From: Eubacteriales bacterium
GTDB taxonomy: Bacteria > Bacillota > Clostridia > Oscillospirales > QAKW01
DNA length: 64,000 nt
Direction of reading: 5' to 3'
NCBI GenBank assembly: GCA_045593905.1
Contig: JAZNXL010000024.1
Span: forward strand, 14,028 to 78,027
Every line of letters starts with the position of its first letter. Position 1 is the stretch's first letter. The translations under genes were made by a program, and so were the position numbers. Below the pieces are notes generated by a model that was not told the origin of the DNA, ran no database searches, and saw nothing but the letters and a program-made list of their open reading frames with translations. Positions 1-48,392 of this stretch are shown here, piece by piece.

Positions 1-533
1 CAAGAATTGATAAGGTATACGGCAACGACAAGCTCCAGCCTGTAATTACAGCGCTTGGAACAAACATCGGTCCCGACTTTAATATCGAAAAACTCCGCTA
101 CGGCAAAGTTATTATTATGGCCGATGCCGACGTTGACGGTTCGCATATCCGTATACTTCTTTTAACCTTCTTCTTCAGATTTATGCGTCCGCTTATCGAA
201 GAAGGTCACGTGTATTTAGCACAACCGCCGCTTTACAAAATTTTAAAGGGCAAAAAAGATTATTACGCATATTCTGACGAAGAGCGTGATAGAATTTTAG
301 CCGAAATCGGCGACGGCGCTATGATTCAGCGCTATAAAGGTCTTGGTGAAATGAACCCCGAACAGCTTTGGGAAACAACTATGGACCCCACAAGAAGAAC
401 AATAGTTAAGGTAACAATGGAAGACGCTGTGCTTGCTGACCAAATATTCACAGTTTGTATGGGCGGCGATGTTGAGCCCCGCCGTGAGTTTATTGAACAA
501 AACGCACAGTACGTTAAAAATCTTGACATTTAA
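1..533 (+). CDS. gyrB: DNA gyrase subunit B, C-terminal part (5' end outside window)
   Basis: Open frame from the window edge. Contains TOPRIM/GyrB-C motifs [23 protein letters not shown] and [21 protein letters not shown], and is directly followed by gyrA. Confidence 0.97.
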
Positions 534-544
534 GGTGATATAAA

Positions 545-3025
545 ATGGCAGACATTAAACATAGTAGTGAAATAGATTTCGAGGGCCAAAAGGTCATTGA
601 AATAGACGTTGAAAACGAGGTGCGCAACGCGTTTATTGACTATGCAATGAGCGTTATTACCGCACGTGCGCTTCCTGACGTACGCGACGGCTTAAAGCCT
701 GTTCACAGACGTATTCTTTATACAATGCACAGGGCAAACCTAACCCCCGATAAGCCGTATAGAAAATCGGCAACTACCGTCGGTGATGTGCTCGGTCACT
801 TCCACCCCCACGGTGACGCATCGGTTTATGATGCAATGGTTCGTCTTGCGCAAACCTTCTCATTACGCTATCCGCTTGTTGACGGTCAGGGTAACTTTGG
901 TTCAATCGACGGCGACGGCCCTGCTGCTTACCGTTATACCGAAGCAAGAATGCAAAAAATTGCACTCGAAATGCTAACTGACATTAAAAAAGATACCGTT
1001 GACTTTATGCCCAACTTCGACGATAAAGACGAAGAGCCTACGGTTTTACCCGCACGTTTTCCAAATCTTCTTGTTAACGGCTCATCAGGTATTGCGGTTG
1101 GTATGGCTACCGAAATTCCGCCTCACAATCTTTCAGAGGTAATCGACGGCACAATCGCGCTTATGGAAAACCCCGATATTGATATTGAGGGACTTATGGA
1201 ATATATCCAAGGCCCCGACTACCCCACAGGCGGTATCATTATGGGCAGAACAGGTATTCGTAACGCTTACAAAACAGGCCGCGGTAAAATTTACGTTCGC
1301 GCTAAAGCCGAGATTGAAGAACAAAAAGACGGTAGATTCAAAATTGTCGTAACCGAAATTCCTTATATGGTAAGAAAATCGGCACTTATCGAAAAAATTG
1401 CCGACGAGGTTAAGGGTGAACGCATTGTTGGTATTTCTGATATCCGCGACGAGTCAGATAAAGACGGTCTCAGGTTTGTAATTGAGCTTAAAAAAGAAGC
1501 AAATGCACAGGTTGTTTTAAACCAGCTTTACAAATACACCGAGATGCAGGCAACCTGCTCGGCTATAATGATTGCGCTTGTTAATAATGTACCAAAGGTG
1601 CTTAACCTTAAAGAAATGTTAAGCGAGTACGTTAAGCATCAGCGCAGCGTAATTACCCGCCGTACACAGTTTGATATTAATAAAGCAAAAGCAAGAGCGC
1701 ATATTCTCGAAGGGCTCATTAAGGCTATCGACTATATTGACGAGGTTATTGAAATTATTAAAAAATCAAAGTCAATTGCCGATGCAAAGGTTGCGCTTTG
1801 TGAAAGATTTGGTCTTGACGACCTTCAGGCACAGGCTATTGTTGATATGAAACTTGGTCAGCTTGCAGGCCTTGAACGCGACAAGATTGAAAACGAGTAC
1901 AAAGAACTTACCGAAAAAATTGCCGACCTTGAAGATATTCTTGCAAACGCATGGCGTGTTGACGAGATTATCAAGACCGACTTACTTGAAATTAAACGTA
2001 AATACGGCGATGCAAGACGCACCGAGATTGGTGTTGGTGAAATCGGTATTGAAGACGAAGACTTAATTCCTGTTGAAGACTGCGTATTCACTCTTACCGA
2101 CGCAGGCTACGTAAAACGTATTCAAACATCAGAATACCGTGCTCAGCATAGAGGCGGTGTTGGTGTTAAGGGTGTTAAAACAAAAGAAGACGACACCGTT
2201 CGCCAAATGTTTGTTGCATCAACCCACGATTATATATTGTTCTTTACATCACTTGGCAGAGTTTATAAGGCAAAAGGCTACGAAATCCCCGAGTGCTCAC
2301 GTACTGCAAAGGGAACAAGCGCTGTTAATATCATTCCGCTTATCTCGGGCGAAAAGGTTTCATCAATGATTAGAGTAAGCGAGTTTAACGATGATTACTT
2401 GTTAATGGTTACAAGAAACGGTACCGTTAAAAAGACATCAATGACCGAGTACTCACATATTCGTAAAACAGGTGTTATTGCAATAGTACTCGATGACGAG
2501 GATACACTCGACACAGTACTTAAAACAACAGGTGACGATAACCTTATTATCGCATCGCACTTTGGTAAGGCTATCAAGTTCTCTGAGGCAGATGTTCGAC
2601 CCATGGGCAGAGTTACCCGCGGTGTTCGCGGCATTAAGCTTGTGGAAGGCGACTACGTTGTTGGCGCTGCAATCGAGCAACCCGATTCGGCACTTCTTAC
2701 AATTACTGAAAACGGCTACGGCAAACGCACCGATACAAGCGAGTATCGTGTTCAGGCAAGAGGCGGTAAAGGTGTTGGTAACTATAACATTACCGATAAA
2801 ACAGGTAACGTTGCGGCAGTTGCCGTTACAACCGGCGAAGAAGATGTGTTACTTGTAACATCGGCAGGTCAGCTTATGCGTACCGCTACAAGCGAAATCT
2901 CAATGTTCTCAAGAACAACCAAAGGCGTTCGCGTTGTAAGACTTCCCGACGGCATTAAGGTTATTGATATGGCTCTTTCACAAAAAGAAGACGAAGAAGA
3001 AATAACCGAAACAACTGAAGAATAA
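545..3025 (+). CDS. gyrA: DNA gyrase subunit A
   Basis: 826 aa. Contains [26 protein letters not shown], the HPHGD motif, repeated C-terminal beta-pinwheel blades and an acidic tail. Confidence 0.98.
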
Positions 3026-18565: not shown

Positions 18566-18576
18566 GCCCTTTTTTA
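18549..18576. terminator. Bidirectional terminator (AraC gene / spoVT)
   Basis: A-run, GGGCTC ATT GAGCCC, T-run. Confidence 0.8.
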
Positions 18577-19104
18577 ATTTTCCATTTGTTTGCCAATGAA
18601 TACAGCCGATGCGGTTACAAGCTTAAGGTCGGCTTCGGTTATAGGCTTGTCAGCGGTTTTAATAAACGCGACCGCGCCAAGCGCATCGCCCGCGGCGATA
18701 ATGGGGTAGGCTGCAACCACCACCTGCGCGCTGTCACTTGTCAGAGGCAGGTCAGAGCTTTCGCTCAAATATGCCTTGCGTGACGAGATAATCTCTTCAA
18801 TACCCTTGCTTACAGGGCGCTCAAGCACGTCTTTTTTACCGCTGCCAGCAAACGCAATAACCGAGTCGTTGTCGCACACGGCACAGGCTACGCCTGTAAC
18901 ACCGTAGAGCGATGCGCAAATATCCCCGGCAAACGCCGACAAATCATTAAGCGGCGAATACTTTTTAAATATAACCCCGCCCTCGCGGTCAGTAAAAATC
19001 TCAAGCGGGTCGCCCTCACGAATTCTCATAGTACGGCGAATTTCTTTCGGGATAACAACCCTACCTAAATCATCTATTCTTCTCACAATACCTGTTGCTT
19101 TCAT
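18574..19104 (-). CDS. spoVT: Stage V sporulation protein T (AbrB-type N-domain plus GAF-like C-domain)
   Basis: Starts MKATGIVRRIDDLGRVVIPKEIRRTMRIREGDPLEIF; 176 aa. Confidence 0.9.
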   Translation of the reverse strand: MKATGIVRRIDDLGRVVIPKEIRRTMRIREGDPLEIFTDREGGVIFKKYSPLNDLSAFAGDICASLYGVTGVACAVCDNDSVIAFAGSGKKDVLERPVSKGIEEIISSRKAYLSESSDLPLTSDSAQVVVAAYPIIAAGDALGAVAFIKTADKPITEADLKLVTASAVFIGKQMEN

Positions 19105-38340: not shown

Positions 38341-40680
38341 ATGAACATAACAAGACCAAGAGTTAAAGTAAAGGCTCAAAAATGGGCAAGATACAAGCAC
38401 AGTTTAATATCAGCGCTCGGTCCTGACGGCAAGCGTATGACAGGCTGTGACGAACATATCGCGCTTTCGCAAAAAGCGGCAAGCGAGGGCATGGTACTTC
38501 TCGAAAACAACGGTGTTTTACCGCTTAAAAAAGGCACAAAGGTTGCGCTTTTTGGTATGGGTACGCTCGACTATACAAAGGGCGGCGGCGGTAGCGGTGC
38601 CGTTTACTGCAAATATACATATAACATATACGAGGGCTTTAAGTTAAAAGAGCCGTATGTATCGGTTTACGAGCCTGTAACAAAATATTACTACGACTAT
38701 GCAATGGCGCATCTTGACGAATATGCAGGCGAAGGAGATTGTGAACCGCTCATACCAAATATACCGCTCACGACCGATTTGCTCAACGATGCGGCAAGAA
38801 TATGTGACGTTGCTATTATAACAATCAGCCGCACCTCGGCCGAGGGTGCCGACCGTCTTTCAGAAAAAGGTGACTTTTACTTAACTGATGATGAGCAGCA
38901 AACTGTTGATGCTGTTACATCGGTGTTTGATAAATGCGTTGTTATTTTAAACGTTGGCGGTATGGTTGATGTTTCGTGGATAAAGAGTAACGATAAAATC
39001 GGCGCGGCACTTCTTGCATGGCAAGCAGGCCAGAACGGTGCGCTCGCGGCAGCTGACATTATTTGCGGTGACGTTAACCCATCGGGTAAACTTGCCGATA
39101 CCTTTGCAAAAACTTTTGCAGACTATCCATCGGCAGATACCTTTAACGAAAGCGAAGACTATGTTGAATACTTTGAAGATATCTATGTAGGCTACCGCTA
39201 TTTTGAAACTATCCCCGGCGCTAAAGACAAGGTAAACTATCCCTTTGGCTACGGTCTTTCATACACAACCTTTGATATTTCAAAACCGGTTGCAAAACAA
39301 AACGGCGACAGCATTGAGCTTTTTGTAACTGTTACAAACACAGGCGATGTGGCAGGTAAAGAGGTTGTTCAAGGCTACTACTCAGCGCCTCAGGGTGTTC
39401 TCGGTAAGAGCGCAATTGAACTTGGTGCGTTCCAAAAAACAAAGCTTTTAGCACCCGGCGAGAGTGAAGATATTACACTTTCGTTCAAAATTGCTGATAT
39501 GGCAAGCTATGACGACCTTGGCAAGCTTCAAAAATCAGCATATCTTTTAGAAAAAGGTGACTATAAATTCTTCGTTGGTAACAGCTGCCGTAACACACAG
39601 CAGGCTGACTACGTTTACACAGTAACCGAGGAGTTTGTTGTAACAGAGCAGTTATCACAAAAATGCGCTCCCGTTCATATTAAAAAGCGTATGCTCTCTG
39701 ACGGTAGCTTCGAAGCTCTCCCCGAGGGTAGCTTTAAGCACTACAGCCCCGCGCCGTACGTAAACCCTGCAAAACCCGTTGAAAGCGCAACTCCTTTCAC
39801 ACTCGAGGACGTATATAACGGTAAGCTCACACTTGACGAGTTTTTAACACAGTTTACCGATGACGAGCTCATAACTCTTTTGGCAGGAACAGGTGTGCGT
39901 TGGGGTGTTTCAACAACAATGGGTATAGGCGGAATTGACCGACTTGGTGTGCCTGTGCTTATGACAAACGACGGACCTGCGGGCCTTAGGGTGCGCTCTA
40001 CAATAGGCATTGCAACAACTGCTTGGCCGTGCGCAACACTTCTTGCTTGCACCTGGAACACCGATATTATGTACGAAATAGGTAAAGCAGGCGCCATTGA
40101 AGCAAAAGAACAAGGCAACGCTATTTGGCTCACCCCCGGACTTAATATCCATAGAAACCCGCTTTGCGGCCGTAACTTTGAATACTTTAGCGAAGACCCT
40201 GTTGTTGCGGGTAAGTTAGCCGCTGCAAAGGTAAACGGTATTCAAAGCCAAAAGATTGGCGCATCAATCAAGCATTTTTGCTGTAATAATAAAGAGATTA
40301 ACCGTCAGTTCTCTGATAGCCGACTTTCAGAACGTGCACTCAGAGAAATTTACTTAAAGTGCTTTGAAATTGCAGTTAAAGAGTCACAGCCGTTTACTCT
40401 TATGTGTGCATACAACATTGTAAACGGACAAAGATGCTGCGAAAGCTATGAGCTTAACCAGCTTATCCTTCGCGATGAATGGGGCTATGAGGGTATGATA
40501 GAGACTGACTGGTGGACACCCTGTGACCAATCAAGCATTGTACTTGCAGGTTGCGATGTGCGTATGCCAATAGGTGAGCCCGAGGTGGTTAAGTTTGCGT
40601 TAAAAAACAAAAAGCTCACTCGCGGACACCTTGAAAAATGCGCAAAACGAGTACTCGAAATGATGCTTAAGATTGACTGA
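38341..40680 (+). CDS. Glycoside hydrolase family 3 beta-glucosidase-like enzyme, circularly permuted domain order (copy 1)
   Basis: The N-terminal part matches the GH3 alpha/beta-sandwich and FnIII-like domains (LLENNGVLPL, SAEGADR, YPFGYGLSYTTF). The C-terminal part matches the GH3 barrel (NIHRNPLCGRNFEYFSEDP, KHFCCNNKE, ETDWW). Confidence 0.92.
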   Translation: MNITRPRVKVKAQKWARYKHSLISALGPDGKRMTGCDEHIALSQKAASEGMVLLENNGVLPLKKGTKVALFGMGTLDYTKGGGGSGAVYCKYTYNIYEGFKLKEPYVSVYEPVTKYYYDYAMAHLDEYAGEGDCEPLIPNIPLTTDLLNDAARICDVAIITISRTSAEGADRLSEKGDFYLTDDEQQTVDAVTSVFDKCVVILNVGGMVDVSWIKSNDKIGAALLAWQAGQNGALAAADIICGDVNPSGKLADTFAKTFADYPSADTFNESEDYVEYFEDIYVGYRYFETIPGAKDKVNYPFGYGLSYTTFDISKPVAKQNGDSIELFVTVTNTGDVAGKEVVQGYYSAPQGVLGKSAIELGAFQKTKLLAPGESEDITLSFKIADMASYDDLGKLQKSAYLLEKGDYKFFVGNSCRNTQQADYVYTVTEEFVVTEQLSQKCAPVHIKKRMLSDGSFEALPEGSFKHYSPAPYVNPAKPVESATPFTLEDVYNGKLTLDEFLTQFTDDELITLLAGTGVRWGVSTTMGIGGIDRLGVPVLMTNDGPAGLRVRSTIGIATTAWPCATLLACTWNTDIMYEIGKAGAIEAKEQGNAIWLTPGLNIHRNPLCGRNFEYFSEDPVVAGKLAAAKVNGIQSQKIGASIKHFCCNNKEINRQFSDSRLSERALREIYLKCFEIAVKESQPFTLMCAYNIVNGQRCCESYELNQLILRDEWGYEGMIETDWWTPCDQSSIVLAGCDVRMPIGEPEVVKFALKNKKLTRGHLEKCAKRVLEMMLKID

Positions 40681-40717
40681 TTAATTTAAATATATATAAA
40701 GCTAAATGGAGGCAATT

Positions 40718-43057
40718 ATGAACATAACAAGACCAAGAGTAAAAGTAAAAGCTCAAAAATGGGCAAAATACAAATATAACTTAATATCGGCGCTCGGTCC
40801 TGACGGTAAGCGTATGACAAGCTGTGATGAACATATTGCGCTTTCGCAAAAGGCGGCAAGCGAGGGTATGGTACTGCTTGAAAATAACGGTATTTTACCG
40901 CTTAAAAAAGGCACAAAGGTTGCGCTTTTTGGTATGGGTACACTCGACTATACCAAAGGCGGCGGCGGTAGTGGTGCCGTTTACTGTAAATATACATACA
41001 ATTTTTACGAGGGCTTTAAGAAAAAAGAGCCTTACGTCAGCGTTTATGAGCCTGTTACAAAATACTACTATGACTACGCAATGGAGCATCTTGACGAGTA
41101 CGCAGGCGAGCGTAACAACGACCACCTTGTTCCTTGTATTGAACTCCCCGAAAAGCTTTTAAACGATGCCGCAAAAGAGTGCGACGTTGCGGTTATTACA
41201 ATAAGCCGTACCTCACACGAGGGTGCTGACCGTTTTTCAGAAAAAGGCGACTTTTACTTAACTGACGACGAGCAGCAAACTGTTGATGCCGTCACATCGG
41301 TATTCGATAAATGCGTTGTTATTTTAAACGTTGGCGGTATGGTTGACGTTTCGTGGATAAAGAATAACGATAAAATCGGTGCGGCACTTCTTGCATGGCA
41401 AGCAGGCCAAAACGGTGCGCTCGCGGCAGCTGATATTATTTGCGGTGACGTTAACCCGTCAGGTAAGCTTACCGATACATTTGCAAAAACCTTTGACGAT
41501 TATCCGTCAGCTGATACCTTTAACAAAAGCGAAGACTATGTTGAATACTTTGAAGATATTTACGTAGGCTACCGCTATTTTGAAACTATCCCAGGCGCCA
41601 AAGACAAGGTAAACTACCCCTTTGGCTACGGTCTTTCATACACAACCTTTGATATTTCAAAACCTGTGGCAAAACTCGACGGTGACACAATAGAAATTTC
41701 AACAACCGTTAAAAACACAGGCGATATGGCGGGCAAAGAGGTTGTTCAAGCATATTACTCGGCACCGCAGGGTGTACTTGGCAAAAGCGCTATTGAACTT
41801 GGTGCATTCCAAAAAACAAAGCTTTTAGCCCCCGGCGAGAGCGAGGATATTACAGTTTCGTTTAAAGTGGCCGATATGTCAAGCTACGATGACCTCGGCA
41901 AGCTTAAAAAATCAGCATACCTTTTAGAAAAAGGCGATTACAGGTTCTTTGTAGGTAACAACTGCCGTAACTTAATACAGGCTGACTACGTTTACACAGT
42001 GGCTGATGAGTTTATTGTAACCAAGCAGCTTAGCGAACTTTGTCCGCCAATCAACCTTAAAAAGCGTATGCTTGCTGACGGTAGCTTTGAAGCTTTGCCC
42101 GAAGGTAAATTTAAACACTACAAACCCGAACCGTACGTAAACACCGCAAAGCCTGTTGAAAGCGCAACTCCTTTCACACTCGAAGACGTATACAATCAAA
42201 AGCTCACCCTCGACGAGTTTTTAACACAGTTTACCGACGACGAGCTTGTTACAATAGTTACAGGCTGTGGCTCAAACAGAAGCGTTTCAACAACGGCAGG
42301 TATGGGCGGTATCGTAAGACTTGATGTACCAATTATGCCTACAGCCGACGGCCCTGCAGGCGTGCGTATTAGACCTACAGTTGGTATTGAAACAACCGCT
42401 TGGCCGTGTGCAACACTGCTTGCTTGTACCTGGAACACCGACATTATGTATGAAATAGGTAAAGCGGGCGCAATCGAGGCAAAAGAGCAAGGACTTGCAA
42501 TATGGCTTACACCCGCGCTCAATATCCACAGAAACCCGCTTTGCGGACGTAACTTTGAATACTTTAGTGAAGACCCTGTTGTTGCGGGTAAGTTTGCTGC
42601 TGCAAAGGTAAACGGTATTCAAAGCCAAAAAATCGGCGCATCAATCAAACATTTTTGCTGCAACAACAAAGAGGTTAACCGTAAGTTCTCTGATAGCCGT
42701 GTTTCAGAACGCGCTTTACGTGAAATTTACCTCAAGTGCTTTGAAATTACAGTTAAAGAATCTCAGCCCTATACACTAATGAATTCGTACAACATTGTAA
42801 ACGGACAAAGATGCTGCGAAAGCTATGAGCTTAACCAGCTTATCCTTCGCGATGAATGGGGCTATGAGGGTATGATAGAGACTGACTGGTGGACACCCTG
42901 TGACCAATCAAACAATGTTCTTGCAGGTTGCGATGTTCGTATGCCTGTAGGCGACCCCGAGGTGTTAAAGGGCGCACTCCATAACAAAAAGATTACTCGC
43001 GGACACCTTGAAAAATGTGCAAAACGCATACTCGAAATGATGTTAAAGATTGACTAA
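40718..43057 (+). CDS. GH3 beta-glucosidase-like enzyme, permuted (copy 2, tandem paralog)
   Basis: Collinear with copy 1, with long identical nucleotide stretches. ATG at 40718 follows GGAGG. Confidence 0.92.
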   Translation: MNITRPRVKVKAQKWAKYKYNLISALGPDGKRMTSCDEHIALSQKAASEGMVLLENNGILPLKKGTKVALFGMGTLDYTKGGGGSGAVYCKYTYNFYEGFKKKEPYVSVYEPVTKYYYDYAMEHLDEYAGERNNDHLVPCIELPEKLLNDAAKECDVAVITISRTSHEGADRFSEKGDFYLTDDEQQTVDAVTSVFDKCVVILNVGGMVDVSWIKNNDKIGAALLAWQAGQNGALAAADIICGDVNPSGKLTDTFAKTFDDYPSADTFNKSEDYVEYFEDIYVGYRYFETIPGAKDKVNYPFGYGLSYTTFDISKPVAKLDGDTIEISTTVKNTGDMAGKEVVQAYYSAPQGVLGKSAIELGAFQKTKLLAPGESEDITVSFKVADMSSYDDLGKLKKSAYLLEKGDYRFFVGNNCRNLIQADYVYTVADEFIVTKQLSELCPPINLKKRMLADGSFEALPEGKFKHYKPEPYVNTAKPVESATPFTLEDVYNQKLTLDEFLTQFTDDELVTIVTGCGSNRSVSTTAGMGGIVRLDVPIMPTADGPAGVRIRPTVGIETTAWPCATLLACTWNTDIMYEIGKAGAIEAKEQGLAIWLTPALNIHRNPLCGRNFEYFSEDPVVAGKFAAAKVNGIQSQKIGASIKHFCCNNKEVNRKFSDSRVSERALREIYLKCFEITVKESQPYTLMNSYNIVNGQRCCESYELNQLILRDEWGYEGMIETDWWTPCDQSNNVLAGCDVRMPVGDPEVLKGALHNKKITRGHLEKCAKRILEMMLKID

Positions 43058-43091
43058 ATAAAAAATCTCGTAGTTTTTACTACGAGATTTT
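43055..43091 (+). repeat. 37-nt direct repeat, left copy (includes the GH3 stop codon and an intrinsic terminator)
   Basis: TAAATAAAAAATCTCGTAGTTTTTACTACGAGATTTT is identical to 48154-48190. Confidence 0.9.
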
Positions 43092-43175
43092 ATTTTGTGA
43101 AAATTTTTGCCGTTCTAAATAATAACTTCGCTTACGAGAGGTACTTATCGGCACGGGCAACTCGTCTCCTACATA

Positions 43176-43461
43176 TAAATTTAATATATTATTGCAATTT
43201 TTTAAAAAACATGATAAACTGATAATTGCCAAACTAACTGAATACTTGTGTGAAATTGGGTGTATTTTCTTTTTATAAGGATAAATACGCTCTATTTTCG
43301 TAACCTATAATTATTACGAATTTGATAAAAATGCAAATTTCAACGAATGTATGTTGCGAGCGTTTTTACGCCCTTTTCACACTCGGTTAGTTTGGCGACT
43401 ATCGGAGTTTGCGTTTTTTGTGCGGTTGCTTCGGTAGCCGCACTTTTTAATTTTTAGGAGG
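43176..43461 (+). promoter_or_regulatory. Conserved leader copy 1: promoter, about 230-nt structured 5'UTR, terminator, RBS
   Basis: TTGCAA (43192-97), 17 nt, TAAACT (43215-20). Long-range helix 43228-43255 with 43375-43396. Terminator 43420-43448. AGGAGG at 43456. Near-identical to 45549-45834. Confidence 0.65.
43420..43456 (+). terminator. Leader terminator/attenuator hairpin (UUCG loop) directly upstream of the RBS
   Basis: GTGCGGTTGC TTCG GTAGCCGCAC followed by T5AAT5. Confidence 0.7.
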
Positions 43462-43466
43462 AAAAA

Positions 43467-45473
43467 ATGAAAAAACGAATTTTAAGCTTAGTACTTGTTT
43501 TAGTTATGTCGGTATCTTTTGCAGCTACTATGTGTGTTACAGCTAGTGCCTATACATATAATGGAAGCGCTGCCGTTGATTATGCCAATCAGCATTGGAA
43601 TGATGGTGTAGGCAAGTGTGCAACCTTCGTATCTAATTGTTTGGCAGCAGGTGGTTGCAACGCGTGGTCTTCTTTAGTTGTAAATTTAAGAGAACAGTTA
43701 ATTAGTGGCGGTTGGGGAACCGAATATCTTCTTACAGAGAATGGACAATCAATATATGAATATCAAAACTCTGGAAAGCTTTCTGCGGGCGACCCCATAT
43801 TTTTTTATTGTAAAAAATGTAAAACTTTCACACATGTGGTTATTTGCACTGGATTCAATAGCGAGGGAAAAGCAACTGCATCTGGACATAATGCCGCATG
43901 GAATAATGTTACTTACATAGCGGGATTTTGGGACGCTTCAGAGCATAAAGGTGACGATATTTTAGTATATTCATTTCATATTGACGGAGACGATATAAAC
44001 TATCACAACCTTAGTGAAGGTGTATATTTCATATTGAATATGGGTCAAAAAAGATATCTGGCAGTTGACAACGGAATAGATGAGAATGCGCAGAACGTAT
44101 CAGCTCATATATTTTGGAACAGCGACGCTTATAAAATGTCAATTACAAAGGTAGGGGATGCCTATAAAATGCGACCTCTTTGTTCTGCTTCAAGACTAAT
44201 AAATGTGTATGCAGATACAGTTGTGAGTGGAAAAAATGTAAATATTTACAACGAAACTAATCATGCATCGCAGTGGTGGAGATATGAGCTTGTCGGCGAT
44301 TCGTTTATTATAAGAAACGCCCAAAATCCAAGTTGTGTACTTACCGTTGATGGCGAAAATGTAATAGTATCAACATATACAGGCTCCGACTACCAAAAGT
44401 GGCAAATATACGCTCCTCAAGATACAATTGCTTATAATGCAAATGGTGGCACAGGGGCGCCGCCTTCGCAAGTCAAATATCACAATATTGACCTTGTGTT
44501 GACTTCTCAAACTCCTGTTCGCGAGGGCTATACCTTTTTGGGTTGGTCACATAGTCCTACGGCAACACAACCAAGTGCATACCCCAGTGGTGTTTATCAT
44601 AGTTTGACGGGAGCAACTTTGTATGCAGTATGGTCTAAAAATACCGTGCACACTTGTGAATTTTCAAATTATATTTATAACAATGATGCAACTTGTATAA
44701 ACAATGGTACAGAAACAGCTACTTGCAGTTGTGGTAAAACAAATACAAAAGAAAAAGCTAACTCGGCAACTGGTAATCATTATTGGGGAGAATATATATC
44801 AAACAAGAATGCAACCGAAACAGCTGATGGTACAAAAACACGTACTTGCGCGGTTTGTGGTCATAGCGAAACTGCAGTAGACGTTGGTTCAAAACTTCCT
44901 GCAATCAAGGACACAACGGCAATATTTACCGACGTAGCTCAAGATTGGTATACAACCTTTGTTAACTACGCATACACCTACGGCATATTCAAGGGCAACG
45001 AAGACGGCACGTTTAAACCGCTTTCAAATATCACACGTGCTGAATTTGTGCAGGTGCTTGCAAACATTACAGGCGTTGATACCTCAAACAAAGCGGTTGT
45101 AACAAAGTTTAGCGATGTGAGAGCAGGCGATTGGTTTGCACCTGCTGTTAAGTGGGCAAACGATAACGGAATTGTTGCAGGTAAATACGCAAATCAGTTT
45201 GCTCCCGAAGAAAACATAACACGTGAGCAAATGTGCGTTATGATTGTAAACTATGCAAAATACAGGGGAATTACTCTTGCAGTAGTTGAGGCAAAAGAGG
45301 CGTTTGCTGACGATTGGGCAATAAGCTCATGGGCAAAAGATGCAGTTTATGCTTGTCAGATGGCTGACATTGTAAACGGCAAAGGCGAGGGAAGATTTGA
45401 CCCACAAGGCACAGGTCTTAGAGCCGAAGCATCGGTTATATTTACAAAATTCCATCAAAATTATTTAAAATAG
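43467..45473 (+). CDS. Secreted multidomain S-layer-homology protein: papain-like putative amidase, ricin-type lectin, Listeria-Bacteroides repeat, Cys-rich module, 3x SLH
   Basis: Signal peptide ending TASA. Cys/His pair GKCATFVSNCL / FTHVVICTG. QxW-like motifs SQWW and YQKW. NANGGTGAPP...YTFLGWS. Three SLH repeats at the C-terminus (FTDVAQDWY.., FSDVRAGDWF.., FADDWAISSW..). Confidence 0.85.
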   Translation: MKKRILSLVLVLVMSVSFAATMCVTASAYTYNGSAAVDYANQHWNDGVGKCATFVSNCLAAGGCNAWSSLVVNLREQLISGGWGTEYLLTENGQSIYEYQNSGKLSAGDPIFFYCKKCKTFTHVVICTGFNSEGKATASGHNAAWNNVTYIAGFWDASEHKGDDILVYSFHIDGDDINYHNLSEGVYFILNMGQKRYLAVDNGIDENAQNVSAHIFWNSDAYKMSITKVGDAYKMRPLCSASRLINVYADTVVSGKNVNIYNETNHASQWWRYELVGDSFIIRNAQNPSCVLTVDGENVIVSTYTGSDYQKWQIYAPQDTIAYNANGGTGAPPSQVKYHNIDLVLTSQTPVREGYTFLGWSHSPTATQPSAYPSGVYHSLTGATLYAVWSKNTVHTCEFSNYIYNNDATCINNGTETATCSCGKTNTKEKANSATGNHYWGEYISNKNATETADGTKTRTCAVCGHSETAVDVGSKLPAIKDTTAIFTDVAQDWYTTFVNYAYTYGIFKGNEDGTFKPLSNITRAEFVQVLANITGVDTSNKAVVTKFSDVRAGDWFAPAVKWANDNGIVAGKYANQFAPEENITREQMCVMIVNYAKYRGITLAVVEAKEAFADDWAISSWAKDAVYACQMADIVNGKGEGRFDPQGTGLRAEASVIFTKFHQNYLK

Positions 45474-45548: not shown

Positions 45549-45834
45549 TAAATTTAAATTATCATTGCAATTTTTAATAAAACGTGGTAAACTGATATTT
45601 GCCAAACTAACTGAATACTTGTGTGAAATTGGGTGTATTTTCTTTTTATAAGGATAAATACGCTCTGTTTTCGCAACCTATAATTATTACGAATTTGATA
45701 AAAATGCAAATTCCAGCGATTGTAGGTTGCGAGCGTTTTTACGCCCCATTTCACACTCGGTTAGTTTGGCGACTATCGGAGTTTGCGTTTTTTGTGCGGT
45801 TACTTCGGTAGCCGCACTTTTTAATTTTGGGAGG
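45549..45834 (+). promoter_or_regulatory. Conserved leader copy 2
   Basis: TTGCAA (45565-70), 17 nt, TAAACT (45588-93, with TG extension). Helix 45601-45628 with 45749-45770. Terminator 45794-45822. GGGAGG at 45829. Confidence 0.65.
45794..45828 (+). terminator. Leader terminator/attenuator hairpin, copy 2
   Basis: GTGCGGTTAC TTCG GTAGCCGCAC followed by T5AAT4. The G-to-A change turns a G.U pair into an A-U pair. Confidence 0.7.
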
Positions 45835-45842
45835 ATGATTAA

Positions 45843-47870
45843 ATGAAAAAATGTATTGCATGTGGCAACAAGCTAAAAAAAAGCAGTGAATTTTGTAGCA
45901 AGTGCGGTGCACAGGTTTTACAAGAGGATACGTTACAAAACGATACTTCAAACTTGACGGAACAAACAGAACAAACAGTAACTGTTCTGAAAAAAGGTGG
46001 CTTTATAAATTTTTTAAAAAAGCATATTTTCATTATTTTAGGTGCTGTTGTTGCAATTGCCGCAATAACAACTACTTTGGTTTTGCTTATTCCTAAACTA
46101 ACTTCAGTAGTAACTATGGGTAAACCCAAAAGAACAAATCATGTGTTGTATTTTAAAGACAAAGAAATGTTCTTTTATAATCTTAAAGAAGAACAAGCTC
46201 CAATACAGGTTACATCCGATTTTGATAGAGATAATTTAATTGAAAAAGACCAATATGGTTGGTGGATTTCAAGCGATGAAACATACTTATGTAAAAATGG
46301 CACCTTGCTTTTTTATCCGGGACAAATATCGTCTAACGGAGAAGATGAAGTTAAAAATGTAAGTATATATTATCGCAATGTTAAAGAGCAGGAATCGGAG
46401 CCTGTAAAAATAGATTCTGACATACGCGAGGGTTCCGTAAACGCTTCTGGTACAATTGTTATTTACGTAAAGGGCAATGAAAGAAATTTATTTCAGTATT
46501 TTGTAGAAACTGAAACACGCGAGAAAATTGCAAGCGGGGTTGATTGGTTTGAATATACCGAGGACCACGAAAAAATATTATATCAAAATTCAGAGGGCGA
46601 TATTTATTTATTAAACTCCGAAAATAAAAAAGAAAAGATTGTAAGTGAAGCGTCCAGCGTAGAGTATGTAAATTTTGATTTTTCTATTATATACTATATT
46701 AAAGACAATACACTTTATAAACAAACAGTCGGCGGCGAACGCGAGAAAATTGCTGAAGGAGTGAGCTATGTTATTAATGTATACGATTCGGGCGAGATAT
46801 ATTATAGAAAAACCGAAGAAATAACCTTAACCTATATGGATTTGGTTGAAGATGATTTAAAGGATAGCGATGCTTCAATTACTATGCCTGAAAAACCAAC
46901 TGCACCAAAGGCGTATGATTATGACACGTGGGATGAATATTATGATGCATGGGATATATATGACTTTGCGTATGAAAATTATAAAACCCAACTTGAAAAA
47001 TACGAAGATAAATTATATCGTGACAGTCTTCGTGAAATTCTTTATGAGTCAACATTAACCTACGATAACGACTCGTTATATTTTTATAATGGCTCAGAAG
47101 AAAAGAAAATTACAGACAACTATGCATACTATGACGGATGGAATTATTCAGAAAAGTCGCCTATTATTACATATAATGTATGTGACAGGTCTAATTTGAA
47201 GACAGTAAAGTTTAGCGAATTAATAGTTAAGTATGAAAATGACGAGATTGAGAATATAGATGATTTTTCATATTTTGATACACTTCATGAAGGTGATTAT
47301 ACATATATAGCAAGTAAGGATAATGTAACTAAAGTTGAAGTTGAAAAAACTGCTAAAGTTTTAATAAATGAATCAGGCACCGGCGCATATTACATAGAGC
47401 GTCCCGTCGAGGAAAAGAATTACGGAGAATTATATCATGTAGACATTATAGATGGTGCCATAGGTAAACCTAAGTTATATGACAGTGACGTTTGCTATTA
47501 TAATATATATTTTATAGATGACAACAGAATTGCATATTATAAAAATGCCAAAGAAAATGATGGCGACCTTTATATTAACAAAGAAGAAATTGACTTTGAT
47601 GTTTGGAGCTTTCAATATTACGAACATTGTGATACACTTGTTTACTATACTGACTATAATACCGAAAAAGAGTACGGTGTATTAAAAATATATAAAGACG
47701 GCGAGTCAACAAAAATTTCAGATGACGTGTATGACCATTATATCACAGAAGACGGCACAGTTTTATTCTTGTATGATTACAGTACGGAGTATTACAGAGG
47801 TGAGCTTGATATGTGGAAAGACGGCGAGAAAACAAAAATAGACGATGATGTAATGGCTATTATAGATTAG
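45843..47870 (+). CDS. Zinc-ribbon / single-TM protein with a large repeat-rich Tyr/Asp/Glu-rich ectodomain
   Basis: CIACG..(x10)..CSKCG zinc ribbon, TM segment HIFIILGAVVAIAAITTTLVLLI, then about 580 aa with a recurring Y-Y/F-x-K/D-G/N beta-strand-like periodicity. Confidence 0.8.
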   Translation: MKKCIACGNKLKKSSEFCSKCGAQVLQEDTLQNDTSNLTEQTEQTVTVLKKGGFINFLKKHIFIILGAVVAIAAITTTLVLLIPKLTSVVTMGKPKRTNHVLYFKDKEMFFYNLKEEQAPIQVTSDFDRDNLIEKDQYGWWISSDETYLCKNGTLLFYPGQISSNGEDEVKNVSIYYRNVKEQESEPVKIDSDIREGSVNASGTIVIYVKGNERNLFQYFVETETREKIASGVDWFEYTEDHEKILYQNSEGDIYLLNSENKKEKIVSEASSVEYVNFDFSIIYYIKDNTLYKQTVGGEREKIAEGVSYVINVYDSGEIYYRKTEEITLTYMDLVEDDLKDSDASITMPEKPTAPKAYDYDTWDEYYDAWDIYDFAYENYKTQLEKYEDKLYRDSLREILYESTLTYDNDSLYFYNGSEEKKITDNYAYYDGWNYSEKSPIITYNVCDRSNLKTVKFSELIVKYENDEIENIDDFSYFDTLHEGDYTYIASKDNVTKVEVEKTAKVLINESGTGAYYIERPVEEKNYGELYHVDIIDGAIGKPKLYDSDVCYYNIYFIDDNRIAYYKNAKENDGDLYINKEEIDFDVWSFQYYEHCDTLVYYTDYNTEKEYGVLKIYKDGESTKISDDVYDHYITEDGTVLFLYDYSTEYYRGELDMWKDGEKTKIDDDVMAIID

Positions 47871-47979: not shown

Positions 47980-48156
47980 ATGAGAAATAAAGCTAATAAG
48001 CATTTGGGAATAGAGGTTGACCCCGAGCTGCATAAAAAGTTGCACTTTATTGCAAAGTACGAGGGTCGTTCTGCAAACGGACAAATTCTTTATCTTATAA
48101 GACAGTGTATTCGTGAGTTTGAAGACAAGCACGGAAAAATAGAAGATGAGCAATAA
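47980..48156 (+). CDS. Ribbon-helix-helix (Arc/CopG-like) DNA-binding protein, 58 aa (below the ORF-track cutoff)
   Basis: My translation: MRNKANKHLGIEVDPELHKKLHFIAKYEGRSANGQILYLIRQCIREFEDKHGKIEDEQ. GGAG RBS at 47971. A perfect 23-bp palindrome lies upstream at 47894-47916. Confidence 0.7.
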   Translation: MRNKANKHLGIEVDPELHKKLHFIAKYEGRSANGQILYLIRQCIREFEDKHGKIEDEQ

Positions 48157-48190
48157 ATAAAAAATCTCGTAGTTTTTACTACGAGATTTT
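48154..48190. repeat. 37-nt direct repeat, right copy (RHH stop codon plus bidirectional terminator)
   Basis: Identical to 43055-43091. The FTR-like gene stop codon lies 2 nt further on the minus strand. Confidence 0.9.
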
Positions 48191-48191
48191 T

Positions 48192-48392
48192 TTAATCTTT
48201 TGATTTATAGTAGAGCATACAGTGGCAAAAGCCTTCAAAGTTAGGGTCGGCAATTTGCTCTTTAAACTCTTTGCAAATACATTTGTATTCTTCGGTTTTT
48301 GGCAGTCGGCAGGGACAGTATCCGCCTTTTGCCTTAAGACCGTCTTTTATTCTTTTTACAACTTCTTTATCGGGGTTAAGTTTTACTGCCAT
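48192..48392 (-). CDS. Ferredoxin:thioredoxin reductase catalytic-subunit-like mini-protein
   Basis: 66 aa carrying a CPC...CIC...CHC cysteine pattern. Confidence 0.75.
   Translation of the reverse strand: MAVKLNPDKEVVKRIKDGLKAKGGYCPCRLPKTEEYKCICKEFKEQIADPNFEGFCHCMLYYKSKD

Follow-up and report, generated by a model that had tools for sequence, protein, structure and literature searches.

The window analyzed here, a stretch of 64,000 nucleotides (nt) from an Eubacteriales bacterium (contig JAZNXL010000024.1, positions 14,028 to 78,027), carries two copies of a leader element with its own promoter and intrinsic terminator, placed in front of two unrelated genes. These copies belong to a genuine, previously undescribed family of structured leader RNAs of about 215 nt, and we consider it somewhat probable (about 0.55) that each copy is a cis-acting transcription attenuator gating the gene behind it. 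A preliminary description of the window had pointed to a near-identical repeat upstream of coding sequences without similarity, and both points held. Copy A (43176-43461) and copy B (45549-45834) are 93.4% identical, their alignment of 286/287 nt showing 17 mismatches and 2 gap columns, with 9 differing columns within the transcribed part; the likeness starts just upstream of the -35 box, ends a few codons inside both open reading frames (ORFs) and has abrupt edges. The product of the ORF behind copy A (43467-45473) is a secreted protein that contains Amidase_6, RicinB, Flg_new and three SLH domains; that of the ORF behind copy B (45843-47870) is an unrelated membrane protein of 675 amino acids with an N-terminal zinc ribbon and one transmembrane segment. 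The folds of both copies are more stable than those of shuffled sequence (z = -6.2 for A and -8.6 for B), none of 200 shuffles being as good.

Beyond the window we recovered 27 further distinct copies (loci numbered L001 onwards), mostly from metagenome-assembled genomes (MAGs) of Acutalibacteraceae and Oscillospiraceae and including one phage contig. An exact 31-mer covering the 3' arm and the linker was found once each in 17 species-representative genomes, as 16 distinct sequences, and nearly all of its carriers were Acutalibacteraceae or Oscillospiraceae MAGs from ruminants. Seven more copies, from metagenomes, were obtained with a degenerate pattern sparing the closing helix P1, and a BLAST match and a gapped pattern added two far more divergent forms, one in MT835503.1 and the other in three identical IMG/VR contigs. 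Against viral sequences the two exact patterns gave no match, and it was the looser pattern that returned the three IMG/VR contigs; the plasmid collection held no match to the element. A covariance model built from 24 sequences recognized 26 full-length members at 103-257 bits, the main group scoring 190-257 bits, the IMG/VR form 118 and MT835503 103 (copy B, 256.7 bits), and a further match was obtained in L039, a contig fetched through SpoIVB. The MT835503.1 record (L031) is labelled 'UNVERIFIED bacteriophage', and within the first 12 kb it has genes for MatE, ABC exporters, a PALP enzyme and an aldo-keto reductase; as this region looks bacterial, this only match in the phage collection was not counted as phage evidence. 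A tRNA gene lies ~170 nt upstream of its element.

The preliminary description had recognized no known RNA class and had proposed an Rfam scan, which returned no significant family match. With Rfam 15 at gathering thresholds the 64-kb window gave no match, and at E<=10 it gave sub-threshold noise, among which the L20 leader scored highest over the element, with 20 bits against a threshold of 58.7. The same scan of 14 other element loci found a tRNA and a ZTP riboswitch elsewhere and nothing at the element. The latter, a ZMP/ZTP riboswitch of 63.7 bits, is located on the minus strand at 6120-6200 of L003, upstream of a pyruvate formate-lyase gene. The sequence strings of the element were not found in the searched literature of 8 million papers, where keyword searches yielded LoaP and conAn as the only analogues.

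In the predicted layout, the 5' end of the RNA would be buried in P1, which would enclose P2, P3 and an optional P4 and be followed by a linker and a terminator placed about 10 nt before the ribosome-binding site (RBS). All features given for the window lie on the plus strand. The 5' strand of P1 in copy A (43228-43259) consists of P1a GCCAAACTAACTGA (43228-43241), a conserved AUA(CUU) internal loop, P1b GTGTGAAAT (43248-43256) and GG (43258-43259), and its 3' strand (43372-43396), assigned from fold and covariation, consists of CC, TTTTCACAC and TCGGTTAGTTTGGC. P1a pairs GCCAAACTAACTGA with TCGGTTAGTTTGGC over 14 bp and P1b pairs GTGTGAAAT with ATTTCACAC over 9 bp, plus GG/CC, an asymmetric internal loop setting the two parts apart. 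Of the closing helix of 8 and 14 bp outlined previously, the 14-bp part stands, whereas the inner part has 9 bp rather than 8 and is lengthened by GG/CC. Inside P1 are the P2 hairpin (GUGUAUUU...AAAUACGC, 43260-43290), equally based on fold and covariation; the long P3 hairpin (43298-43359), with a hypervariable but always paired basal stem (43298-43312 with 43345-43359) and an apical stem of GAATTTG (43318-43324) and CAAATTT (43334-43340) closing the loop ATAAAAATG; and the P4 mini-hairpin GCGT-TTTT-ACGC (43360-43371), which is dispensable and missing in four family members. The corresponding core of copy B (45601-45770) comprises the P1 5' strand (45601-45632), P2 (45633-45663), P3 (45671-45732, apex 45691-45713), P4 (45733-45744) and the P1 3' strand (45746-45770). 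The three internal hairpins noted earlier were recovered in both copies, and the three stem substitutions between them (43301 T/C, 43340 T/C and 43428 G/A) each change a G.U pair to G-C or A-U, as had been claimed.

Covariation across the collected homologues supports these helices. In the model alignment of the 26 members, 95.9% of the cells fall in standard pairs against 85.5% in shuffles, and compensatory double changes occur in 45 of the 71 pairs, compared to 14-24 when the partners are slid by 1-3 columns; none of 500 shuffles reached the observed values. The same helices evaluated on a plain MAFFT alignment, not fitted to the model, were matched by 0/500 shuffles on four of five measures and by 1/500 on the fifth. 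Compensatory changes were found in 15/15 pairs of the P3 basal stem, 11/12 of P2, 8/11 of P1b/c, 7/14 of P1a and 3/10 of the terminator, whose stem is always paired. The two divergent forms have wholly different P1a and P1b sequences that are yet complementary. An alternative pairing, GGGUGUA:UACGCCC, which would replace the local P2 and P4, is as pair-compatible as P2. Among the non-Watson-Crick cells, G.U far outnumbers A.C both in the nested helices (228 vs 11) and in the pseudoknot described below (58 vs 0), and therefore the folded molecule is the sense-strand RNA.

Conservation of sequence is concentrated outside the variable stems. Near-invariant in all members are the P3 apex UUUG-(A/U)UAAAAAUG-CAAAUUCC, the linker UCGGAGUUUGCGUUUU and the terminator GUGCG....CUUCGG....CGCAC with its U-tract; a short A/U-rich internal loop in the P1 5' strand is also conserved throughout, whereas the divergent members do not keep the multi-helix junction. 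We considered and dropped a kissing contact of the terminator loop (UUCGG) with the P1 internal loop (CUGAA), as 5 of the 26 members change the G while their terminator loop stays the same, and this G instead forms a pair in P1a. The small ORF in the leader, said to be disrupted between the copies, is indeed broken by a 1-nt indel, and no conserved reading frame or start codon was found across the 26 members. A leader peptide or small protein gene was accordingly rejected, as frames shift, no start is common and an indel in L028 breaks the sole open frame.

The promoter TTGCAA-17-TAAACT reported earlier is present in both copies, with an extended -10 TG that had gone unmentioned. In copy A (43192-43220) the -35 TTGCAA (43192-43197) is separated by a 17-nt spacer from the -10 TAAACT (43215-43220), with the TG at 43212-43213; in copy B (45565-45593) the three elements are at 45565-45570, 45588-45593 and 45585-45586, respectively. 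In 27 copies the boxes TTGCA(A/T) and TGnTA(A/T)AMT keep a constant distance from P1 while the spacer varies, and the predicted transcription start is therefore 1-3 nt before P1 (about 43226-43228 in copy A). A sigma-70 consensus scan did not flag this promoter (8 of 12 matches, with a cut-off of 9); it was accepted in spite of this score because it is positionally conserved, and by its sequence it is a predicted strong sigma-A-type promoter with an extended -10.

At the other end of the leader stands an intrinsic terminator with a 10-bp stem containing 6 G-C pairs, a UUCG loop and a run of T5-T7, so that a GC-rich hairpin is directly followed by the U-tract. The UUCG terminator with its T-run was correctly noted before in both copies: GTGCGGTTGC-TTCG-GTAGCCGCAC plus T5 in copy A (43420-43448) and GTGCGGTTAC-TTCG-GTAGCCGCAC (45794-45817) plus T5 (45818-45822) in copy B. 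Its stem is paired in 100% of the cells, with 3 covarying pairs, and the base GUGCG/CGCAC and the loop CUUCGG are invariant or nearly so, divergent members included. Such an invariant sequence is unusual for the expression platform of a riboswitch and suggests recognition by a macromolecule. At L033 (8680-8810) there is a miniature unit made of a consensus promoter, a leader of ~60 nt, a terminator of the same type (AUGCGUUUGC-UUCG-GUGGGCGCAU plus a T-run) and an RBS, which is either a deletion derivative or a sign of a wider use of this terminator.

Between P1 and the terminator lies the invariant linker, GACTATC-GGAGTTTGCGTTTTT-T in copy A (43397-43419) and within 45771-45822 together with the terminator in copy B (GGAGTTTGCGTTTTT at 45778-45792). 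The loop of P3 together with the 3' strand of its apical stem (AAAAATGCAAATTTC, 43327-43341 in copy A; 45700-45714 in copy B) complements the linker (43404-43418 in copy A) over 15 bp, as a putative pseudoknot in which 99.2% of 389 cells are paired. Eight of its pairs vary on one side and one shows a compensatory change (A-U to U-A, in L001). The substitutions in the strand shared with the apical hairpin are all A-to-G opposite U and are therefore tolerated by both partners, GAAUUUG and the linker GAGUUUG, a pattern that selection for two alternative partners would predict. Nearest-neighbour energies give -18.8 kcal/mol for the pseudoknot duplex and -3.2 for the apical hairpin. The pseudoknot strand stops 1 nt before the terminator stem. 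With the RNA folded no further than the terminator loop, all members show a small linker-terminator hairpin in which GGAGU pairs with ACUUC (GCUUC in some members, copy A among them) and GCG with UGC, both 3' partners being located in the 5' half and loop of the terminator. This 8-bp pairing, a candidate antiterminator, is pair-compatible in 99% of the cells.

Wherever the sequence behind a copy can be read, it is followed by an ORF in the same orientation. The RBS is part of the conserved block, usually ~10 nt past the T-run, and where the ORF directly adjoins, the start codon is usually found 19-22 nt past it; the RBS and ATG at some 20 nt from the terminator are as the preliminary description had them (AGGAGG at 43456-43461 in copy A, unit 43456-45473; GGGAGG at 45829-45834 in copy B, unit 45829-47870). 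Since the gap between T-run and start codon is too small for a promoter, the downstream genes depend on read-through. Their products are diverse: the SLH amidase/lectin of the window, three zinc-ribbon membrane proteins (one with DUF6273), a BspA-type LRR protein with a dockerin domain according to Pfam (L004), proteins that appear LRR-repeat-like by eye (L003 and L011), collagen-like repeat proteins, a GT2 glycosyltransferase, a GH25-SH3 lysozyme, a lipoprotein, an EcoRI-type methylase followed by a GmrSD/HNH nuclease (L031) and a 785-amino-acid protein with methyltransferase-like motifs (NPPY) and no Pfam match. Several other downstream proteins had no Pfam match either. The phage contig from IMG/VR has the element at the head of the packaging operon, followed by the zinc-ribbon ORF, TerS and TerL. 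At L003 the element (2468-2695, minus strand) is intact and scores 236 bits, and a TTGACT-17-TAAAAT promoter is placed between an 8-codon ORF remnant and the LRR gene.

From this arrangement we infer conditional termination by a relay of mutually exclusive pairings, with a direction of switching and a type of effector that can be proposed as follows. Once the promoter fires, the structured RNA would fold and the polymerase would meet a strong terminator immediately before the RBS, so that termination would be the default outcome and the gene behind would be transcribed by read-through only. In the relay, the P3 apical hairpin GAAUUUG/CAAAUUC would give way to the 15-bp pseudoknot between the P3 loop plus 3' strand AAAAAUGCAAAUUCC and the linker GGAGUUUGCGUUUUU; the linker (GGAGU/GCG) could otherwise pair with ACUUC/UGC of the terminator 5' half, and this last pairing would exclude the terminator itself. 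Formation of the pseudoknot would sequester the linker and let the terminator fold, whereas an effector keeping the P3 apex closed, or binding the linker or the terminator hairpin, would raise read-through. Candidate effectors are a specialized protein factor of the NusG/NusA type, RNA polymerase itself and a small ligand; a macromolecule appears at least as likely as a small ligand because of the invariant terminator hairpin, the unconserved junction, the incoherent gene sets and the copy in a phage late-type operon. The unit would be portable, travelling with or capturing diverse accessory genes. What the preliminary description proposed as a riboswitch or attenuator is upheld in that the 5' leader is non-coding, structured and covarying, carries a promoter of its own and has a terminator just before the RBS; its assignment as a riboswitch is not established. 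Of the four refuting conditions named there, three (a known family, copies away from gene starts and a lack of covariation) were put to the data and did not apply. More speculative, and advanced here as a minority view, is the idea that the family is a regulatory RNA class of its own. It would be an orphan riboswitch sensing some global signal, for example a second messenger, or else the RNA partner in an unrecognized antitermination system whose factor reads the invariant pseudoknot and UUCG hairpin, and it would act as a portable 'expression socket' exchanged between distant Acutalibacteraceae and their phages.

Several observations weigh against an attenuator of this kind. The pseudoknot rests mostly on conservation; its covariation taken alone is weak, with 20 of 500 shuffles attaining the same score. 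At -5.8 kcal/mol (vs -16.3 for a terminator stem of the copy-B type) the candidate antiterminator is likewise weak and, being invariant, is without covariation support. No candidate protein partner was found, NusG/KOW proteins being absent from the 18 window ORFs and the ~48 flanking ORFs scanned, and no ligand suggests itself because the downstream genes share no pathway. At L003 only 8 codons remain of the ORF adjoining the intact RNA, and the gene after it is preceded by a separate promoter. The RNA is 75-90% identical in nucleotide sequence where the neighbouring SpoIVB proteins are 40-48% identical; such extreme conservation, together with the intact L003 RNA, fits a function of the RNA itself, for instance as a trans-acting small RNA (sRNA).

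In at least 15 loci (the spoIVB-flanking set being L001, L004, L006-L010, L012-L017, L025, L037 and L039) the element starts 65-170 nt, mostly 65-85, past the spoIVB stop codon, in the region that directly joins spoIVB to spo0A in related genomes. In L009 an IS200-like gene separates spoIVB from the element, behind which come two ORFs and spo0A; REP-like palindromes (GGGGACGATGCCCACATCGTCCC) surround this Y1 transposase gene between spoIVB and the element (1680-2260), and the same palindrome is also found upstream of the L021 element. Among genomes with SpoIVB homologues the site is occupied in L037 and L039, and the element is absent from it in L032, L033, L036, L038, L040 and one Anaeromassilibacillus, where spo0A lies directly behind spoIVB. 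An apparent remnant past spoIVB in L038 proved to be a terminator only. Copies outside this site lie behind a pyruvate formate-lyase/activase pair, behind a radical-SAM gene and, in the window, behind a GH3 gene. Similarities of the RNA and of SpoIVB are weakly correlated (Spearman rho 0.33): in the pair L014/L015 the RNAs are 96% and the SpoIVB proteins 44% identical, and in L006/L013 the values are 84% and 95%. Taken with the high RNA identity beside diverged SpoIVB proteins, this weak coupling points to strong constraint and to exchange or gene conversion. A recombination breakpoint within the spoIVB 3' end was not supported, the extra similarity there being the ordinary conservation of the SpoIVB C-terminus. 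In the window, both leader-gene units and an ORF of 58 amino acids (47980-48156, without a Pfam match) form a 5.1-kb block bracketed by 40-nt direct repeats that are identical at 39 of 40 positions. The left copy (43055-43094) is the terminator hairpin past the second GH3 gene and marks the left edge of the block, and the right copy (48154-48193), past the 58-amino-acid ORF, marks its right edge. The block looks like an island inserted behind the second GH3 gene, and no integrase was found inside it. The L003 unit is similarly bracketed, by a 23-nt direct repeat of a terminator.

The same RNA could be a stand-alone transcript of ~215 nt that acts in trans or sequesters a protein, its terminator being simply its 3' end, with incidental read-through into genes accumulated at a hotspot. 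Its own strong promoter and strong terminator, the burial of both RNA ends in helices, a conservation far beyond that of the neighbours and the preferred site beside spoIVB in at least 15 loci are what such an sRNA would show; so are the invariant terminator, which would suit a role in the functional fold, the 1-nt gap to the pseudoknot, with which the whole transcript could be one compact fold, and the persistence of the L003 RNA beside a decayed ORF. An independent transcript would nevertheless be co-oriented with the next ORF by chance in about 0.5 of the loci, whereas co-orientation is universal among the copies that can be read downstream, and it would not explain an RBS within the conserved block, several copies in one genome (such as the window pair 2.4 kb apart) or a copy at the head of a phage terminase operon; nor is a conserved single-stranded seed evident apart from the internal loop of 3-6 nt. 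We regard it as fairly unlikely as the sole function, and the leader RNA may have a dual role in cis and trans.

Two further explanations turn on mobility. In one, the element is a portable unit of constitutive expression without a switch, the leader stabilizing the mRNA, a leaky terminator fixing a low output and insulating the gene, and the conserved sequence serving mainly as a homology handle by which genes are exchanged. The cargo at the same chromosomal site differs in nearly every species, the unit is patchily present beside spoIVB among related genomes, the window pair and the L003 unit lie between direct repeats (40 and 23 nt), and the weak link between RNA and SpoIVB similarity (rho 0.33) indicates exchange or gene conversion. 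As mobility and regulation are compatible, what this explanation mainly denies is the switch, and we think it quite unlikely, for neither a handle nor a stabilizer needs 45 covarying pairs or an invariant linker complementing an invariant apex, motifs that are kept even in members with completely resubstituted helices. In the other, the element acts as DNA, as a cwpV-type invertible switch, an attC-like folded site or a miniature inverted-repeat transposable element (MITE), the P1 arms being terminal inverted repeats for a recombinase or transposase. A segment of ~140 bp between promoter and gene is indeed flanked by imperfect inverted repeats (up to 21 nt), in some copies the complementarity reaches a few bases upstream of the likely transcription start, the CTAAC/GTTAG of the P1 arms recalls attC cores, and the units appear mobile. 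This is very improbable, since in every recovered copy the inner segment has one orientation relative to promoter and terminator, the mismatches are almost all G.U on the sense strand, and the internal hairpins, pseudoknot and terminator, which inversion or transposition would not need, covary or are conserved. There is no consistently adjacent recombinase, integrase or transposase, the lone IS200-like gene (L009) having its own REP-type hairpins, and no match in the plasmid collection. Identity with an insertion sequence or MITE is likewise not borne out by the copy numbers, with two copies in 64 kb and one at each other locus, all before co-oriented ORFs.

Returning to the attenuator, its closest documented analogue is the leader recognized by LoaP, a NusG paralogue that in the dfn and mln operons of Bacillus velezensis binds a UNCG hairpin of the leader and antagonizes NusA-stimulated termination (PMC12691694). 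That long leader combines a nearly invariant UNCG-tetraloop hairpin with an intrinsic terminator (PMC12691694), and loaP genes often adjoin polysaccharide or secondary-metabolite clusters. A long 5' leader, a nearly invariant UNCG hairpin and an intrinsic terminator are shared with our element. However, the only UUCG hairpin of the element is the terminator itself rather than a separate upstream hairpin, the element has a large extra structured domain, its targets are mostly single genes instead of long operons with multiple terminators, and no loaP-like gene was seen among the ORFs scanned around it. As is generic for riboswitches, the element has a conserved structured domain with covariation (45/71 pairs). 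With those that combine a pseudoknot and a terminator (ZTP/pfl, c-di-GMP-II and fluoride) it shares a promoter-proximal, P1-closed domain with covarying variable stems and conserved loops, a pseudoknot between a loop and the 3' tail, and an intrinsic terminator directly before the RBS. The c-di-GMP riboswitch classes also precede surface and adhesin genes and occur in phage DNA. The element differs from these riboswitches in having no Rfam match, a pseudoknot strand off the terminator stem, an invariant terminator, a junction unconserved in divergent members and downstream genes without a metabolic clue.

RNA antitermination elements (HK022 put, EAR of Bacillales and conAn2) are likewise structured RNAs placed early in the unit that act in cis on polymerase to carry it past terminators. 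EAR contains a pseudoknot, controls surface-polysaccharide operons and is probably included in Rfam. The large leader RNA conAn2 of conjugative plasmids needs an inverted repeat (PMC8191782). The copy heading a phage packaging operon recalls this group, but our element has no homology to its members and no Rfam match, and those RNAs are not known to have a conserved, sequence-invariant terminator behind them; processivity would moreover have little to act on because the units of the element are short. In the late gate of phage lambda (PR'-6S RNA-tR') a constitutive promoter yields a terminated leader of ~200 nt, and the late and packaging genes are expressed on read-through of a strong terminator. 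The IMG/VR copy occupies exactly this position (element, zinc-ribbon ORF, TerS, TerL), yet lambda Q is recruited via DNA and a sigma-dependent pause rather than through a covarying RNA fold, and most copies of the element lie in chromosomes without obvious signs of a prophage. With both the lambda gate and the RNA antitermination elements the likeness is one of logic, not of sequence. A cassette without a switch would be comparable to the PeSL promoter/stem-loop cassettes of T4-type phages. Like these and integron-like slots, the element sets a conserved promoter and stem-loop before diverse, unrelated, horizontally acquired ORFs, and as with PeSL tandem modules flank a gene and there is evidence of exchange between genomes; it differs in being a 215-nt RNA with extensive covariation and in having no integrase or attC-type boundary.

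If the element is a conditional attenuator, it would unite accessory and surface genes of rumen and gut Clostridia, a large group that is mostly uncultured, in one regulon, and would stand either for a new class of orphan riboswitches or for a new system of RNA-guided antitermination. Genes acquired horizontally, from those for surface proteins and defence methylases to a phage packaging operon, would then be plugged into one ready-made common control. Conserved beyond a sporulation gene, patchily distributed and with signs of exchange, the family offers a tractable case of a regulatory RNA as a mobile part. Unusual for a terminator-based leader are the invariant terminator, the proposed pseudoknot relay, the hot-swappable downstream gene and the spoIVB-flanking site with its signs of exchange. 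Beyond the preliminary description, the present analysis adds the apex-linker complementarity, the family-wide distribution, the spoIVB site and the island-like context in the window. The alignment and model are suitable for submission to Rfam, and the promoter-leader-terminator-RBS unit is a candidate expression tool for the organisms that carry it.

Concerning the rest of the window, its start (117-3025) contains the end of gyrB followed by a long ORF (545-3025) at the gyrA position, a candidate gyrA, and SpoVT is encoded at 18574-19104. These three features indicate that the window is origin-proximal chromosome of a spore-former. The genes preceding the island-like block are tandem paralogues of the GH3 beta-glucosidase type (38341-40680 and 40706-43057) with a permuted domain order (GH3_C, Fn3-like, GH3_N), and they show 87% DNA identity in parts.

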